A stretch of 64,000 bases of DNA from an uncultured archaeon. Lineage in GTDB: Archaea > Thermoproteota > Nitrososphaeria_A > Caldarchaeales > Wolframiiraptoraceae. The translations under genes were made by a program, and so were the position numbers. Positions 14,281 through 20,928 of this stretch are shown piece by piece. Position 1 is the stretch's first letter; every line of letters begins with the position of its first letter. The notes below the pieces were generated by a model. It made no database searches, was not told where the DNA came from, and saw nothing but the letters and a program-made list of their open reading frames with translations. The DNA lies in assembly GCA_938083505.1 (NCBI GenBank), contig CALKCF010000007.1, positions 32,001 to 96,000 of the forward strand. Direction: 5' to 3'.

Positions 14281-14868
14281 ATGGAGAGTTGTGTAATGCC
14301 AAAGGGGCCTGAGCCAACTATAAAAATAGAAAATGTCGTAGCCAGTGTGACCCTTTTCCAGAGACTCGACCTATCTCAGATACAGAGGAGCTTCCCGGAT
14401 GTTGAGTACAAGCCGGCACAGTTCCCAGGCCTTGTCTTCAGACTTCAGAAGCCGAAGACGGCCACGCTGATCTTCAGCAGCGGCAAGATGGTCTGCACTG
14501 GGGCTGAGAGCGAGGAGGAGTCTATCAAGGCAGTTAAGACAGTCGTCAAACTCCTGAAAAAGGAGGGCTTCCTGATTAAGGAGGAGCCGCAAATAGAGAT
14601 ACAGAACATAGTGGCGAGCGTTGACCTCCATGGCAGGATAGACTTGGAAAGGGCTGCAGCGGAGTTGGAAAATGTCATGTACGAGCCTGAGCAGTTCCCA
14701 GGCCTAATCTACAGAATGGAGCAACCCAAAGTCGTCATACTTATGTTCGCGAGCGGCAAGCTCGTCTGCACTGGCGCTAAGTATGAGCGGGAGGTCTACG
14801 AGGCGGTACAAAAGTTGAAGGGAATACTGGAAGATAAAAATCTGCTGATATATAACACAACGTCATGA
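14281..14868 (+). CDS. tbp: TATA-binding protein (start may be ATG 14296)
   Basis: Two repeats of IENVVAS...YxPxQFPGL...SGKxVCTGA. Confidence 0.98.
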
Positions 14869-15891
14869 CGTACGCTTTCCTTTTAGCAGAATTTCGATGA
14901 ACCTTTTTGTTACGTCTTCTGCGGTCGCTCTACCGCCTAAATCAGGTGTCAGGCTCTTCGGGTCCTGCAGTAAGCAGAGCACAGTGTCCTCCAGGTCTCT
15001 TGCCGCTTTTAGCATGACCGTGTTGTTCTTTTTCTTGCCAAGCCACTCGAGCATCATCTTTGACGCCATAATTTGAGCTATAGGGTTTGCGTATAGTGGG
15101 TTGATGTCCGGCGCCGTTCCGTGAACCGGCTCGAACAGGCCGAACTCGTCTCCTATATTGGCCGAGTAGGCTAGGCCCAAGCTACCAACTATGCCCGCAG
15201 CCTCGTCGCTCAGTATATCGCCGAACATATTCGTCGTGAGTATGACATCGAACTTCTGTGGATTACTCACGAGCTGGTACGCCGCATTATCGACGAGCAC
15301 CTCCTCTATAGTTACGTAGGGATAAGATTTAGCGACCTCGAACGTTGCCCTTCTTAAAAGCTCAAAACTTTTCAGCACGTTTACCTTGTGGACGACCGTC
15401 ACCCTTTTCTTCCTGGCTTCTGCTATCTGAAACGCAACATTAGCTATCCTCAAGCACGCCTTCTTAGTAAGCACCATAAGGGCAACCGCATACTCCTCGC
15501 CGACGTCCTCAAGGCCTTTATACAAGTCTTCTGTGTTCTCCCTGACGATCACTAAATCCACATCACTCCACTTGGAGCTCACTCCAGGAAACGTCCTGAA
15601 GGGTCTTATATTGGCATAAAGGTCCAGCTTCTGCCTTAGGAAGACTATTACGTCCTTCGCCGACTCGCCGACAGGCCCCTTTAAGCATGCGTCTGAAGAC
15701 CTTATCTTGTCGAACGAGTCCTTCGGTAGCGGCTCGCCGAAATCCTTCTTTGCAGAATCGCCGGCTGGTGCCTCCACGAAGCTCAAATTGAAACCATAAG
15801 CCTCAGAAATGACCTCCAATACTTTTTTTGCAGACCTGACGACGACAGGGCCTATGCCGTCGCCCGGTATTACGCTTATGAGGTTTGCCAT
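14863..15891 (-). CDS. leuB: 3-isopropylmalate dehydrogenase (isocitrate/isopropylmalate dehydrogenase family)
   Basis: [33 protein letters not shown]; divergent from a leuA-like gene. Confidence 0.85.
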
Positions 15892-15915
15892 ATTCTAGCC
15901 CACTTTTCTGTGAAT

Positions 15916-15952
15916 ATTTAAGCGTTGAAATCTGGCATCATGGGACCATGAT
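15916..15952 (-). promoter_or_regulatory. Probable leaderless leuB promoter with an upstream 7-2-7 palindrome
   Basis: Minus-strand CAACG-CTTAAATA about 30 nt above the ATG; ATCATGG-GA-CCATGAT at 15937-15952. Confidence 0.5.
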
Positions 15953-15982
15953 CGCAGCATCTGTACTTTTCCGGCAAACTGT

Positions 15983-16032
15983 GAATTAGTTCAGTATTCG
16001 CGGAAAAATTTTCCAGCATGCTGAACTAATTC
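15983..16032. repeat. Long inverted repeat in the leuB/leuA divergent intergenic region
   Basis: GAATTAGTTCAGTAT...ATGCTGAACTAATTC (14/15 match) enclosing GGAAAA-A-TTTTCC. Confidence 0.8.
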
Positions 16033-16034
16033 TC

Positions 16035-16204
16035 GAGAAACGCTTATATATCGTTTGCCAACAAAGATGTGTAAGTTCGATAGGTGAGCAAAGTGAACCA
16101 ACTCGAATAAATTTGGCAAAACTTTTCGAGCTAACATCTAACAAAACCTTTCAAAAATCCTGTTCTGTCGATGTTGTTGCACTTCTTCTCTGAGGTGCTG
16201 TCCA
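16035..16204 (+). promoter_or_regulatory. leuA promoter (BRE/TATA) and a long leader with uORF MNQLE (16093-16110)
   Basis: GAAACG-CTTATATA; SD-like AGGTGA at 16082 ahead of GTG AAC CAA CTC GAA TAA. Confidence 0.5.
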
Positions 16205-17731
16205 ATGGCTTGGAGGAAAATACTATCTGAGGGGTATAACATTCCCGAGAGAGTTAGTATATTCGACACGACCCTAAGAGATGGTGAGCAGACGCCTGGC
16301 GTCGCCCTGACGCCGGAGGATAAGGTCGAGATAGCTATACAGCTCGACAAGCTCGGCGTCGACATCATAGAAGCAGGCTTTCCGATAACCTCGAAGGGTG
16401 AACAGAAGGCCGTATCGGACATATGTAAGCTCGGCCTCTCGGCCAAAATATGCGCACTTGCAAGGTGCGAGAAGAACGACATAGATGCGGCGGTCGATGC
16501 TGGCGTCGATTGGGTCCACGTGTTCCTGGCAACCTCCGACATACACCTAAAGCACAAGCTTAGGATGACAAGGGAGCAAGCCCTCACGAAGATAGCAGAA
16601 GCTGTTGAGTATGCTAAATCAAGAGGGGTGATTGTTCATTACTCGGCCGAAGATGCGACAAGGACAGAACATGACTTTCTGATGAAAGCGTTAAAAGTAG
16701 CAGTCGATGCTGGAGCGGACAGTGTAGACATACCAGACACCGTTGGCTTTGGGATACCCGCGGCAATTCGTAGAATAGTGTCCTCTGCGAAGTTTGTTAC
16801 AGGAAAGCCAGTAGCAGTTCACTGTCATGACGACATGGGGTTGGCAGTAGCAAACTCGCTTTCAGCCGTCGAAGCAGGTGCGGAGATAATCCATGCGACG
16901 ATTAACGGAATAGGTGAGAGGGCTGGCAATGCAAGCTTAGAGGAGATAGTCGTAGCACTAAACATGCTTTACGGTGTGAAGACTAACATAAACCTACAAG
17001 AGATATACAAGACGTCTAGGCTTGTTGCAAAGCTTACTGGTGTTTGGATTCCTAAGAACAAGGCAATAGTCGGCGAGAACGCTTTTGCGCACGAGAGCGG
17101 TATACACGTGCACGGTATACTCGGCTCTCCTGAAACTTACGAACCAATAGCACCAGAACTTGTCGGAAGGAGAAGGAAGATAGTTGCCGGAAAGCACTCA
17201 GGCATACACAGCATAGATTTCCTGCTTAAAGAGCGCGGTCTTGAGATGGACAAGGTGAAGGCTAGAGAAGTTCTGGAAAGGGTCAAAGCCCTCGGGGATA
17301 TGGGCATGAGGGTTTCGGACGCCAAACTTAAGGAGATAGCTGAAGAAATTGTAGGCGAGTCAAGAGATTCTCGGACAATATTCCTGAAGGAGTTCAGCGT
17401 CGTATCGAATACGAATTGTGCGACGGCGCGCATATCTTTGAAAATAGGCGACGAAGTCATCACGGCTGAGTCTTTAGACCACAGCCCGGTTGCCGCATCC
17501 CTCTCAGCCCTTCTGAACGCTGTATCGAGAAAGATGAACATCAAGTTGATTGACTTTAGAATCGATGCAACATCTTACTCACCAGATTTGAAATGTGAGG
17601 CAGAAGTAGTTTTGAGTGTCAACAACTCACAGGAGTATGTTGGCGAGGCGGTCGGGCACGACCCGGCTTTTGTCACAGTAAACGCCATAATAACGGGCAT
17701 CGAGAAGGCTGTGCAGTCCTCTCGGTCATAG
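16205..17731 (+). CDS. leuA: 2-isopropylmalate synthase (citramalate synthase not excluded)
   Basis: [29 protein letters not shown], plus a C-terminal regulatory domain. Confidence 0.8.
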
Positions 17732-17754
17732 GTGGAGTAACATGAAAGTTATCA

Positions 17755-17925
17755 CGAAACGTTTTTATAATGCGGAAGTTTTTCCCTTCACTTTGAGATG
17801 TGAGGGTGATAATAATGCGCCAAATTATCTAGCAATTTTAGATAAGCCCTCACCTAGTATCTACCCTCTAGTATCGTGCTGTTCTCTTCTTTATCTGGAA
17901 ATCCATTTGTATGCGGTGAAGGCAT
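17755..17925 (+). promoter_or_regulatory. ilvB promoter (BRE/TATA) and a structured leader with uORF MRQII (17815-17832)
   Basis: GAAACG-TTTTTATAA; SD-like GAGGGTGA ahead of ATG CGC CAA ATT ATC TAG; stems TTATCTA/TAGATAA and GTGAGGG/CCCTCAC. Confidence 0.55.
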
Positions 17926-19671
17926 ATGGTAAGGGCAGCTGATGCTCTGGTCAAGGCCATGGAATCAAAGGGTGTGGAGGTCATCTTCGGTATACCCGGT
18001 GGTTCTAATTTAACGTTTTACGACGCGCTGTATGACAGTAACATAAGAACCATACTGATGAGGCATGAACAGCAGGCAGTGCATGCGGCAGAGGGTTATG
18101 CAAGGGTTAAGGGAAGGCCTGGGATAGCCTTAGCGACATCAGGTCCAGGTGCAACGAACCTAGTGACCGGAATAGTTAACGCGATGATGGACAGTCAGCC
18201 TGTTATAGCGATAACTGGTCAGGTAACGCGCGACGTGCTCGGAACAGATGCCTTCCAAGAAACGGACATAACAGGCATACTTTTGCCCGTCACAAAATAT
18301 ACTGTAACTGTCAAAGACCCATCTAAGCTTGCCCAGACGTTCATAGACGCATGGTACATCGCCACAACCGGCAGGCCTGGTCCTGTTCTCATCGACGTTC
18401 CAAGGGACGTGTTCCAAGCAGAGGTCGAGCCTCAGTGGAAGAACGAGCCAAGTCTAGCGAAGTATGTGCTAGACTCTCAGATAAGCCATGTCCATGAACC
18501 GGACCCGGAGCTCATAGTGAGGGCTGCCGAGATATTGACGAACGCCGAGAAACCCGTGATAATAGCTGGCGGAGGTGTGATAATAAGTAACGCTTCCGAG
18601 GAACTCGTCAAGCTGGCCGAGTACCTTATGGCTCCTGTCGTGGTTACAACACCTGGTCTGGGTTCCATACCTTCTGACCACCCGCTCATGCTGGGCGTCA
18701 TTGGTATGCATGGCAGAATTGAGGCAAACCTTGCCGTGATAGAGTCGGACACGATTCTGGCAGTCGGTATAAGGTTCTCCGATAGGTCTGTTGGAAGGTT
18801 TGATGAGCTTCAAAGAGATAGAAAGATAATCCACATAGATATAGATGCTAGCGAGATCAGCAAGAATGTTACACCAACCGTAGGCATAGTCGGCGATGCC
18901 AAGAGGACTTTGGCCGAAATTTATGCCTGCGTAACTTCAAGGATTGCAAGAAAAGACGCGAGACCATTCGTTCAAAGGCTCAAAGCGATAGGTGAGAGGT
19001 TTGATGAGTTCATGAACAACCATGGCGAACTGAGTAGGATAACTCCTTGGCGTGCGCTTAAGGTGATAAGAGAGGAGTTACCACGGAATGCAATAGTAGC
19101 GACGGGTGTCGGGCAACACCAGATGTGGGTCCAGCTTTACTTCAAGGTTTTCGAGCCAAGAACGCTTCTGACGAGTTGCGGCCTCGGAACTATGGGCTTC
19201 GGCCTACCTGCTGCCATCGGCGCGAAAATTGCAGCACCAGACAGGGCCGTAGCCTGCATCGATGGCGACGGTAGTTTCATCATGACGTGCCAGAGCTTGA
19301 TACCGATAGCCCAGTACGACATACCCATTATATGCATAATATTCAACAATAGGGTCCTAGGTATGATAAGGCAGTGGCAGGACTTCTTCTACCAAAAAAG
19401 GTACAAGGATGAGAGTCTCAATATATATCTAAAGAAATACGTCAGTAAAAGCGTTGATTATGTGAAGCTCGCAGAATCCATGGGTGTAGAGGGAGCTTTA
19501 GCAGAGTCGCTGGACGATTTAAGGATGTTAATTAGGAGGGCTGTAAGAGCAGGACAAGCGCTGGTCATAGACTTGCCGATAGACAAGGATGAGAGAGTAC
19601 TGCCAATGGTACCTCCTGGCAAGTGGCTCAGTCAGATGATAGTGCCCCAGGGGTTCGATATCTATGGTTAA
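17926..19671 (+). CDS. ilvB: Acetolactate synthase large subunit
   Basis: FGIPGG, RHEQ, TSGPGATN, DAFQE, GDGS...NN TPP motif. Confidence 0.96.
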   Translation: MVRAADALVKAMESKGVEVIFGIPGGSNLTFYDALYDSNIRTILMRHEQQAVHAAEGYARVKGRPGIALATSGPGATNLVTGIVNAMMDSQPVIAITGQVTRDVLGTDAFQETDITGILLPVTKYTVTVKDPSKLAQTFIDAWYIATTGRPGPVLIDVPRDVFQAEVEPQWKNEPSLAKYVLDSQISHVHEPDPELIVRAAEILTNAEKPVIIAGGGVIISNASEELVKLAEYLMAPVVVTTPGLGSIPSDHPLMLGVIGMHGRIEANLAVIESDTILAVGIRFSDRSVGRFDELQRDRKIIHIDIDASEISKNVTPTVGIVGDAKRTLAEIYACVTSRIARKDARPFVQRLKAIGERFDEFMNNHGELSRITPWRALKVIREELPRNAIVATGVGQHQMWVQLYFKVFEPRTLLTSCGLGTMGFGLPAAIGAKIAAPDRAVACIDGDGSFIMTCQSLIPIAQYDIPIICIIFNNRVLGMIRQWQDFFYQKRYKDESLNIYLKKYVSKSVDYVKLAESMGVEGALAESLDDLRMLIRRAVRAGQALVIDLPIDKDERVLPMVPPGKWLSQMIVPQGFDIYG

Positions 19672-19947: not shown

Positions 19948-20928
19948 ATGGTAAAAATATACTACGAGAGCGACATAAGCCTCGAGCCGCTGCTTGGTAA
20001 GAAGGTAGCAGTCATAGGTTACGGGAGCCAAGGAAGGGCCCAAGCACTCAACATGAGGGACTCTGGAATAGACGTCATTGTTGGTGTTAGAGAAGGAGGA
20101 AAATCTTGGAGTGTGGTGAAAGAAGACGGTCTTGAGCCGCTTCCTGTAGAGAAGGCAGCGAAGGAAGGAGACGTAATCCACATGCTAATACCGGATGTGA
20201 TGCAGCCTGAGGTTTACAAGAAATTCATAGAACCAAACCTGAAAGCTGGAAAGGTCTTGGGCTTCTCGCATGGCTACAACATACACTTTAGGCAGATCAT
20301 ACCACCAAGTTACGTGGACGTCGTGCTCGTCGCTCCTAAGGCACCAGGTCCGAGAATGCGTGAGCTCTACCTTGAAGGCAAGGGCGTCCCGGCACTTTTC
20401 GCGGTGAAACAGGATTATTCTGGAAACGCAAGGATGATAGCTTTGGCTATGGCTAAGGCGTTAGGTTGCGCCAGGGCTGGCGTCCTTGAGACGACATTTA
20501 AGGAGGAGACGGAAACTGACCTACTGGGAGAGCAAGCGGTTTTGGTTGGCGGTCTCATTGAGCTCATAAAGAAGGGATATGAGGTACTGGTCGAGGCAGG
20601 ATACCAGCCAGAGCTTGCATACTTCGAAGTATGCAACGAGATGAAGCTAATAGTCGACTTAATATATAAAGGAGGCTTGGTCGGAATGCTGAAGGCAGTC
20701 TCCGATACCGCAAAGTTCGGCGGCCTACTTGTGGGCTCCCAGATAATCGACGAGCGTGTAAAGGAGAATATGAGGGAGGCTCTCAGGAGAATTCAAGACG
20801 GCTCCTTCGCGAGACTTTGGAGCGAAGACCCGAGGAGTAAGCTAATACTCGAGAAGAAGATGGAGGAAATAAGGAACCATCCAATAGAGAAAGTGGGCGA
20901 GGCCGTTAGGAAGTTGGCCCAAATATAG
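19948..20928 (+). CDS. ilvC: Ketol-acid reductoisomerase
   Basis: [33 protein letters not shown]. Confidence 0.97.

Follow-up and report, generated by a model that had tools for sequence, protein, structure and literature searches.

The sensing of amino-acid supply through leader peptides is textbook bacterial biology, and our full-text literature searches found leader-peptide attenuators described only for bacteria and none for an archaeon. Here we analyse the leader of leuA, and its relation to the leader of ilvB, in a hot-spring archaeon of the genus Ca. Terraquivivens (Caldarchaeales, "Aigarchaeota"). The window is a stretch of 64,000 nucleotides (nt) from contig CALKCF010000007.1 of assembly GCA_938083505.1 (positions 32,001 to 96,000 of the forward strand), and all coordinates below count from its first letter. 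The features of this leader lead us to propose, with somewhat better than even confidence, that it is a ribosome-read, leucine-sensing translational attenuator, the mechanism of which we infer from sequence and modelling. Among known systems, the actinobacterial LEU element comes closest, followed by the enterobacterial leaders, the ermC-type attenuators and the upstream open reading frame (uORF) of the Corynebacterium ilvB-II motif.

The LEU element precedes leuA and contains a uORF with a Leu run, the codons of which are predicted to pair with the leuA Shine-Dalgarno sequence (SD) (Seliverstov et al. 2005, PMC1262725). The archaeal leader likewise places a Leu-run uORF before leuA, sets pyrimidine-rich Leu codons against a purine-rich ribosome-binding site (RBS) and has no obvious terminator. 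It differs not only in its archaeal host but also in layout, because its run abuts an SD that the stop codon overlaps, whereas the run of the LEU element forms the base stem of a pseudoknot. The predicted partner of the run is also different, being the SD in the focal genome and leuA codons 3-5 or +17..+26 in relatives, and the archaeal leader has a second predicted helix to its own RBS as well as an overlapping mini open reading frame (ORF) in another frame.

With the enterobacterial leuL, ivbL and ilvL leaders (Rfam Leu_leader), the archaeal leader shares a short peptide with consecutive codons for the end product, and a Leu, Leu/Ile or Leu/Ile/Val composition that follows the content of the operon (leuA with ilvB/ilvC). 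Unlike them, it has neither a terminator hairpin with a U tract nor an Rfam match: a cmscan of 15700-18100, which spans both leaders, gave only chance miRNA and snoRNA matches at E up to 10 and no Leu_leader. Between the leader ORF and leuA there is no terminator or oligo-T, with no T run of 5 or more in the 11-nt gap. The regulatory codons, moreover, stand at the C-terminal end of the archaeal peptide, adjoining the SD of the main gene, which suggests control of translation initiation rather than of termination.

In the ermC and cat translational attenuators, a pause in the leader ORF removes a hairpin arm that masks the downstream RBS, as we propose for the archaeal case, and the spacing of stop and start by a few nt, with an SD at the stop, resembles that of termination-reinitiation gene pairs. 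However, the proposed pause signal would be aminoacyl-tRNA supply rather than a drug, and the pause would occur so near the SD that the ribosome partly covers it. The Corynebacterium ilvB-II motif was first recognised as a conserved RNA motif, with a conserved uORF rich in branched-chain residues before the ilvB operon, and has been read as transcription attenuation (Narunsky et al. 2023, PMC10272879). It is bacterial and, unlike the archaeal leader, has no overlapping second frame.

A long leader reading frame with terminal leucine codons

The long leader ORF extends on the plus strand from TTG 16113 to TGA 16191-16193 (26 codons) and ends GCA CTT CTT CTC TGA (...VVALLL*, where the asterisk denotes a stop). 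The Leu run, CTT CTT CTC at 16182-16190, provides the candidate sensor codons and lies directly 5' of this stop, which overlaps the leuA SD (GAGGTG, 16192-16197, plus strand) by two bases. The leuA ATG (16205-16207) follows this stop after only 11 nt, so that the stop is near the start and the SD is at the stop, as in a termination-reinitiation layout. In the focal genome (1.15 Mb, G+C 43-44%), we scanned the 482 genes that have an upstream region of at least 90 nt, and leuA is unique among them in having a long open frame with a Leu triplet abutting an SD-overlapping stop. A loose scan of the same regions for amino-acid runs listed 24 ORFs, and nothing convincing was found in the 482 regions for the same leader design with other amino acids.

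Comparison with six other species of the genus (7 genomes in all, LeuA 83-87% identical) shows that this frame is maintained. We number frames relative to a five-codon mini uORF near the 5' end of the leader, which is described below; the long ORF is in the -1 frame. In six of the seven leuA leaders, the only stop in the -1 frame is the one after the Leu run, while the other two frames contain 2-4 stops. Beyond the stop of the 0 frame, the -1 frame is open in all seven leuA leaders and also in all seven ilvB leaders. The leuA tails of the genus read ALLL*, FLL* and LLLL* (four species), and in one genome, G006, the tail is ILL* in a different frame, the Leu-run ORF there sharing the frame of the mini uORF, with two stops in between. 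The codons before CTTCTC switch among CTA, CTG, TTA, CTT and CTC, which is synonymous Leu turnover. At the leuA RBS, CTTCTCTGAGGTG is invariant in six of the seven species. A metagenome search for further diversity in the genus gave five matches, all near-identical to known species and adding no new variation.

Outside the genus, in other genera and families with LeuA 49-57% identical, we compared 39 unique leaders and counted internal stops in 31 of them. A homologous 5' block is found there, consisting of GGTG[GA]G, 3-4 nt and an invariant TATTGCT that holds an overlapping ATT and TTG. The ORF read from this ATT is 24-47 codons long in the 39 leaders and has no internal stops in 31/31, compared to 49 and 47 stops in the other two frames over the same stretch. 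The distance from the end of this ORF to the leuA ATG is 9-16 nt in 26 of the 31 leaders and in the majority of the 39, where the stop lies within the SD or touches it. Leu, Ile and Val account for 64% of the last six codons (39 leaders), compared to 24% in the body of the ORF and 27% in the proteins of the focal genome; when the same tail bases are read in the other two frames, these residues account for only 7% and 16%. The Leu codons of the tail are CTT or CTC in 93 of 106 cases (88%), against 38% in the genes of the focal genome. Typical tails are LLLL*, LLLIL*, LLIIIIL* and LLLKLIIL*, and one genus has LVIIVILLLVVL*. Consecutive codons for the regulating amino acid within a short ORF are seen in the sequence both here (ALLL*) and in the tails of the relatives.

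Two of these genera deserve a separate description. No genus of the class shows the arrangement more clearly than g14 (loci L101-L103), where as many as 12 branched-chain codons in a row close the leuA leader peptides (e.g. ...PPLVIIVILLLVVL*) and the stop TAA is fused to the SD AAGGTGG. In genus g8 (loci L009, L013-L015, L025 and L106), the tail of the ATT-frame ORF is rich in Val (e.g. ...STVGFVVMWDGVA*); it takes in the SD as Val codons and extends 14 nt into leuA before it stops. In the short frame of g8, MLRRFAF* is followed by ...PLLWVLW* past a single in-frame TGA.

A preliminary description of this locus had mentioned in a side remark that the -1 frame is open from TTG 16113 to a stop overlapping the leuA SD. 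The frame is indeed open, and stays so in relatives, and the comparison across the class points to precisely this ORF, with its terminal Leu run, as the conserved sensor. What the sequences show is a conserved leader, a frame kept open, a tail rich in Leu, Ile and Val with biased Leu codons, and a stop that overlaps the SD.

An alternative explanation is that the ORFs are incidental and that the conserved blocks serve either as a structural RNA and nothing more or as the site of a protein, such as an RNA-binding protein or a regulator of the Lrp type. A 27-nt block around the mini uORF is invariant at all codon positions, which goes beyond coding need, and a conserved 50-bp palindrome abuts the promoter as it would for a transcription factor. 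Mini ORFs also occur at chance frequency, and a protein partner has been proposed for the actinobacterial LEU element (PMC1262725). What such an explanation leaves unaccounted for is the one frame that is stop-free in 31/31 leaders, the frame-specific Leu/Ile/Val tail, which includes Ile and Val codons of different base composition, and the synonymous turnover of Leu codons; a transcription-factor site, for its part, may coexist with a leader. We give incidental ORFs little credence.

The mini uORF, the ilvB leader and the frame relation

The leuA promoter lies at 16037-16051 on the plus strand, with a B recognition element (BRE), GAAACG, at 16037-16042 and a TATA box, TTATATAT, at 16044-16051. 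It is kept as GAAA[CT]G[CT]TTATATA in 7/7 genomes of the genus. From the usual archaeal distance between TATA box and start, we infer that transcription begins near 16073-16075, which would give leuA a leader RNA of ~130 nt at its 5' end. The leader SD (GGTGAG, 16083-16088, plus strand) is identical in all seven genomes. Its GGTG core precedes GTG 16093 by 6 nt, and in this genome the spacing of GGTG before gene starts is 5-8 nt. The 16S 3' end gave no match in the assembly with the probe used, and the anti-SD sequence is therefore assumed.

GTG 16093 opens the mini uORF, GTG AAC CAA CTC GAA TAA (MNQLE*, 16093-16110, plus strand), which has a single Leu codon, CTC, at position 4. Its first base is 112 nt from the leuA ATG at 16205. 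Start and stop are retained in 7/7 species, with the changes N/S, E/D/E and TAA/TAG, and the 27-nt block that contains the SD and the uORF, GGTGAGCAAAGTGA[AG]CCAACTCGA, is invariant in all seven while both flanks diverge. As judged from these alignments, conservation of the SD/uORF block is far beyond chance. MNQLE* aligns, when anchored on the common CCAA, as the homologue of MLQIQDY* in genus g5, and MRQII* of ilvB belongs to the same series; because of this homology, the mini uORF is probably a real ORF.

The preliminary description had listed the GAAACG/TATA promoter, the SD, MNQLE*, a pair of stem arms and the -1 frame, and all of these are present at the positions given. It had also named a genome-wide count of leaders with an SD and a five-codon uORF as a null, and this count shows no enrichment. 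Defined as an SD (GGTG), a start 4-9 nt later and an ORF of at most 8 codons, the pattern occurs in 19 of the 482 upstream regions compared to 23.9 +/- 5 in shuffles, which is chance frequency. Of its proposal of amino-acid-specific translational control, the general idea stands, since the leaders are conserved and look translated, and stalling or re-initiation belongs to the right family of ideas. The mini uORF as the prime sensor is not supported. When folding was constrained by a ribosome parked on the mini uORF, predicted accessibility of the leuA RBS was unchanged in all 7 genomes.

One look-alike was found elsewhere in the focal genome (G000), an SD-led GTG ACA CAA CTC TAA (MTQL*) on contig C4 (103772-103900), 114 nt before a radical-SAM (TYW1-like) gene. 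Considered as a related leader, it has no matching promoter or pathway link and is probably a chance occurrence.

The ilvB leader (plus strand) is laid out in a similar manner, with GAAACG at 17756, an SD (GGTGA) at 17805, the mini uORF ATG CGC CAA ATT ATC TAG from 17815, CTGTTCT at 17879 and the ilvB ATG at 17926, 111 nt from the start of the uORF. The preliminary description took this match to the leuA leader, with its 112 nt and its CTGTTCT 45 nt before the ATG, as its main argument. The distances are as it reported, but they lose their force on comparison. The 14-nt BRE/TATA word GAAAYGYTTWTATA occurs at exactly two sites in the 1.15-Mb genome, the leuA and ilvB promoters, and the two leaders align with z = 4.1 over shuffles (2.4 without the promoter) and have GGTGA-N10-CCAA in common. 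Given the unique promoter word and the alignment score, the two leaders are most likely paralogues with distances inherited by common descent, and the matched geometry is thus not independent evidence. Outside the genus, ilvB follows leuA by ~30 nt and a single leader serves both, whereas in the genus ilvB has its own promoter and leader. The weight lies in the maintenance of both leader copies.

The ilvB leaders of the genus, including tandem duplicates in three species, keep M(R)RQ[IV][ILP]*. The start of the mini uORF varies in type and position (ATG or GTG, at -6 or -9) but is always in frame. The tandem ilvB duplicates are at G001:C14:59339-63263, G005:C24:38592-42521 and G002:C38:18218-21065 (L034, L032 and L036), and each copy has its own promoter and a leader with the mini uORF M(V)RQIL*. 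Counted from the mini uORF, the -1 frame of these leaders (17756-17928 in the window) stays open beyond the ilvB ATG in 7/7 cases and has no terminal branched-chain run; it ends at A-TGG-TAA, overlapping the start, or ~14 nt later.

The two leuA frames overlap. An SD-led start (TTG elsewhere, GTG here) stands 6 nt after GGTG and one base past the first base of the long frame (A-TTG, A-GTG). In the 31 leaders elsewhere, the short frame read from TTG closes after 5-10 codons and its codon 2 is always CTT or CTC. GCT is followed only by T or C, yet the long-frame residue encoded there may be W, S, P, R, Q, Y or C.

This arrangement raises the question of whether the choice of frame is itself the sensor. 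The short frame has a CUY Leu codon near its beginning (the fourth codon, CTC, here; the second, CTT/CTC, in other genera), and hunger at that codon would divert the ribosome to the -1 frame and thereby unlock the leuA (and ilvB) start. It could do so by re-pairing of the initiator tRNA from UUG to AUU elsewhere, by a -1 shift here, or by start-less resumption after termination. The early stop would be escaped, the long frame would be translated to the leuA RBS, and leuA would be switched on via unfolding or coupling. Such a device would be homeostatic, and it would make sense of a long frame that lacks a canonical start in the genus and is -1 to the SD-led start both in 6/7 species there and, as A-TTG, in 39/39 leaders elsewhere. 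It would also suit a mini frame in which codon 2 is always CTT or CTC despite the variable long-frame residue and which always closes within 5-10 codons, as well as ilvB leaders in which the mini-uORF start moves but stays in frame and the -1 frame is open in 7/7 with no terminal branched-chain run.

However, GTG AAC CAA CTC GAA TAA contains no slippery X XXY YYZ, tRNA-Gln on CAA would re-pair on CCA with a central mismatch, and the start GUG of the genus cannot slip to AGU. The Leu-run ORF of G006 is in the mini frame (with two stops between), in g8 a single in-frame TGA separates the two parts, and the terminal Leu run would stall a shifted ribosome again. ATT is perhaps merely a weak independent start. 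We know of no counterpart to a frame-changing amino-acid gauge in any domain, and regard this explanation as unlikely. The preliminary description had named frameshifting among its mechanisms; an obligatory -1 shift we also judge unlikely, since the uORF lacks a slippery heptamer and the two frames do not keep one fixed relation, with the Leu-run ORF of G006 in the frame of the mini uORF.

Predicted folds and a model for leuA control

In the focal genome, a fold predicted for 16158-16217 (plus strand) would mask the leuA RBS. GCACUUC at 16179-16185, which comprises Ala and Leu codons, pairs with the SD as GAGGUGC (16192-16198), and the outer helices join leader codons to the AUG and leuA codons 2-5. 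The minimum free energy is -18.8 kcal/mol (z = -2.44), and 3 of 200 shuffles fold as well. The consensus fold of genus g5 places CUUCUCUA opposite UGGAGAAG (leuA codons 3-5), a pairing present in 6/6 leaders, and that of the g6 family pairs the Leu run with leuA +17..+26; both enclose the SD and the AUG. Thus, the sensor codons are predicted to lie in or next to an arm of the RBS-masking helix, with few compensatory changes.

Nucleotide conservation is unusually high in the first codons of leuA (16205-16230 and homologous sites; M A/S W R/E K; ATGGCNTGGAGRAG), which supply the purine-rich strand to which the Leu run pairs in the predicted folds. RNA pairing may thus constrain the LeuA N-terminus.

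A second candidate helix, P1 (plus strand), joins the leader RBS and its 5' flank (16069-16091) to an anti-RBS strand (16160-16183) that lies inside the leader ORF, just 5' of the Leu run and into it, and includes the CTGTTCT element. The predicted duplex energy is -16.2 kcal/mol in the focal genome. Across 11 lineages, native pairs of 5' and 3' windows are stronger than swapped pairs (permutation p = 7.5e-4); examples are a helix of 13 bp in g3 and one of 8 bp in the consensus fold of g6.

The preliminary description had instead proposed a stem between CTCGAA (16102-16107, plus strand) and TTCGAG (16125-16130); TTCGAG has an alternative partner, GGCTTGGAG, at 16207-16215. The stem is compatible with the alignment, since the arms pair in 90% of cells (90-94% for the stem or its alternative), but it shows no compensatory change. 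The stem and the alternative have 0 and 1 compensatory pairs, respectively, which shuffles equal, and no significant covariation. We therefore do not accept CTCGAA/TTCGAG as a proven switch: the stem, an SD hairpin and pairing of TTCGAG with leuA codons 1-4 are all compatible with the alignment, and none is backed by covariation.

These folds suggest how an attenuator would work, with the helices resting on prediction and limited covariation, and with the direction of regulation, the pausing and the coupling supplied by the model. Ribosomes would load at the leader RBS (GGTGAG, 16083) and translate the short leader ORF. The Leu run and the codons that precede it would form the 5' arm of the fold masking the leuA SD and AUG, and the segment just 5' of the run could alternatively close on the leader's own RBS as P1. 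When Leu-tRNA is plentiful, the ribosome would reach the stop and depart, both helices would close and leuA would be poorly initiated. When Leu-tRNA(GAG) is scarce, the ribosome would dwell at the start of the run and hold both masking strands, so that the leuA start region and the leader RBS remain open. Initiation at leuA would then fall either to this ribosome, which would restart 12 nt downstream, or to a newly arriving 30S subunit. MNQLE* would be the entry ORF, with an SD and a canonical start, and in this genus could act as a loading or decoy ORF or as a second sensor. The fusion of stop and SD, the CTY bias and a run length of 9-15 nt, roughly what separates the A site from the mRNA entry channel, fit this model.

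Several points weigh against the attenuator. If the ribosome paused on the last Leu codons, it would sit over the leuA SD, so induction requires either that the pause come at the first codon of the run or that the same ribosome re-initiate. In the genus, no canonical start of the long frame is conserved: TTG 16113 is found in 3/7 species and TTA in three others, the frame is already open 5' of TTG 16113, and the SD-led GTG 16093 lies in a different frame. With regard to structure, helices within the genus have almost no compensatory changes, and the permutation test for P1 could be inflated by matching of GC content between lineages. Full-length ensemble folds are heterogeneous, with the run pairing to leuA coding sequence in about half and P1 forming in about a third. 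The leuA RBS ranks at the 13th percentile for accessibility among 103 SD-led genes, a low value without being extreme, and on this ground we rejected strong sequestration of the focal RBS. Finally, mutation of the Leu codons in the actinobacterial LEU element left regulation unaffected (PMC1262725), so that the analogy cuts both ways.

The difficulty of a ribosome sitting on the SD would not arise if the stall acted on mRNA stability instead. A paused leader ribosome could block 5'-to-3' decay by enzymes of the aRNase J/aCPSF2 type, giving a longer-lived leuA-ilv mRNA when Leu is scarce, much as the ermC mRNA of Bacillus is protected from decay by a stalled ribosome. The sensor codons are within ~120 nt of the inferred 5' end, the response would be homeostatic, no new 30S access beside the stalled ribosome is needed, and all of the conservation data agree. 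Yet the overlap of stop and SD, the complementarity between the run and the leuA start, and the preference for CTY are left unexplained, and we give stall-dependent protection very little credence.

The leader could also control transcription, with its translation determining whether RNA polymerase terminates prematurely at a U-rich sequence or via FttA/aCPSF1, the way leu, ilv and trp leaders work in bacteria. Archaea couple transcription to translation, and factor-dependent termination on untranslated RNA is established in them. A leader peptide bearing a regulatory codon run would suit this mechanism, as would the pyrimidine/U-rich run that follows candidate P1. However, there is no oligo-T of 5 or more after the run or in early leuA, either in the focal genome or consistently in relatives, and no Rfam leader or attenuator was matched at E up to 10. 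In addition, stalling of a ribosome at the leader's end would have an effect opposite to the one required, since the polymerase would be uncoupled and termination favoured, and the overlap of stop and SD points to translational control. Transcription attenuation is, in our estimation, improbable.

Operon context and implications

The operon order provides context for a leucine-sensing attenuator. leuA (16205-17731, plus strand; Pfam HMGL-like, HCS_D2 and LeuA_dimer) is followed on the same strand by ilvB (17926-19671), by a small ORF that is probably ilvN, and by ilvC (19948-20928), with leuB (14863-15891, minus strand) divergent from leuA. A gene for TBP, an archaeal marker, is found at 14281-14868. 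Between leuB and leuA, 4 nt before the leuA BRE, lies a nested palindrome of 50 bp (15983-16032), kept in 6/7 species, in which the arms GAATTAGTTCAG and CTGAACTAATTC flank an inner GGAAAA..TTTTCC. It is likely to be a transcription-factor site, perhaps operating alongside leader control; its sole Rfam match, to a miRNA model, is by chance.

Conservation of the leader device extends over a class of thermophilic archaea (Caldarchaeales, "Aigarchaeota"), with genus g2 lacking the leader ORF. In this genus, which is of the same family (loci L093-L096, L111 and L112), the leuA homologue is 47-51% identical and has a shorter N-terminus. Its upstream region is short, with a TATA-like TTAATA ~25-30 nt before the TTG start, and the mRNA is probably leaderless as judged from this spacing. 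Either the leader has been lost or the gene is a paralogue. In Bathyarchaeia, the TATTGCT motif and a clear leader were absent at the five leuA loci examined.

At the sequence level, the layout differs from that of bacterial leaders in having its regulatory codons at the end of the peptide and its stop fused to the SD. Further differences are the predicted helices to the leuA start and to the leader RBS, and an overlapping mini ORF that uses the same type of Leu codon. If the leuA leader is the attenuator that we propose, ribosome-mediated cis-regulation of biosynthetic operons would exist in Archaea. The leader would also be a compact natural part for Leu-responsive expression in thermophiles, and re-initiation, coupling or frame change by archaeal ribosomes at such sites would become directly testable.

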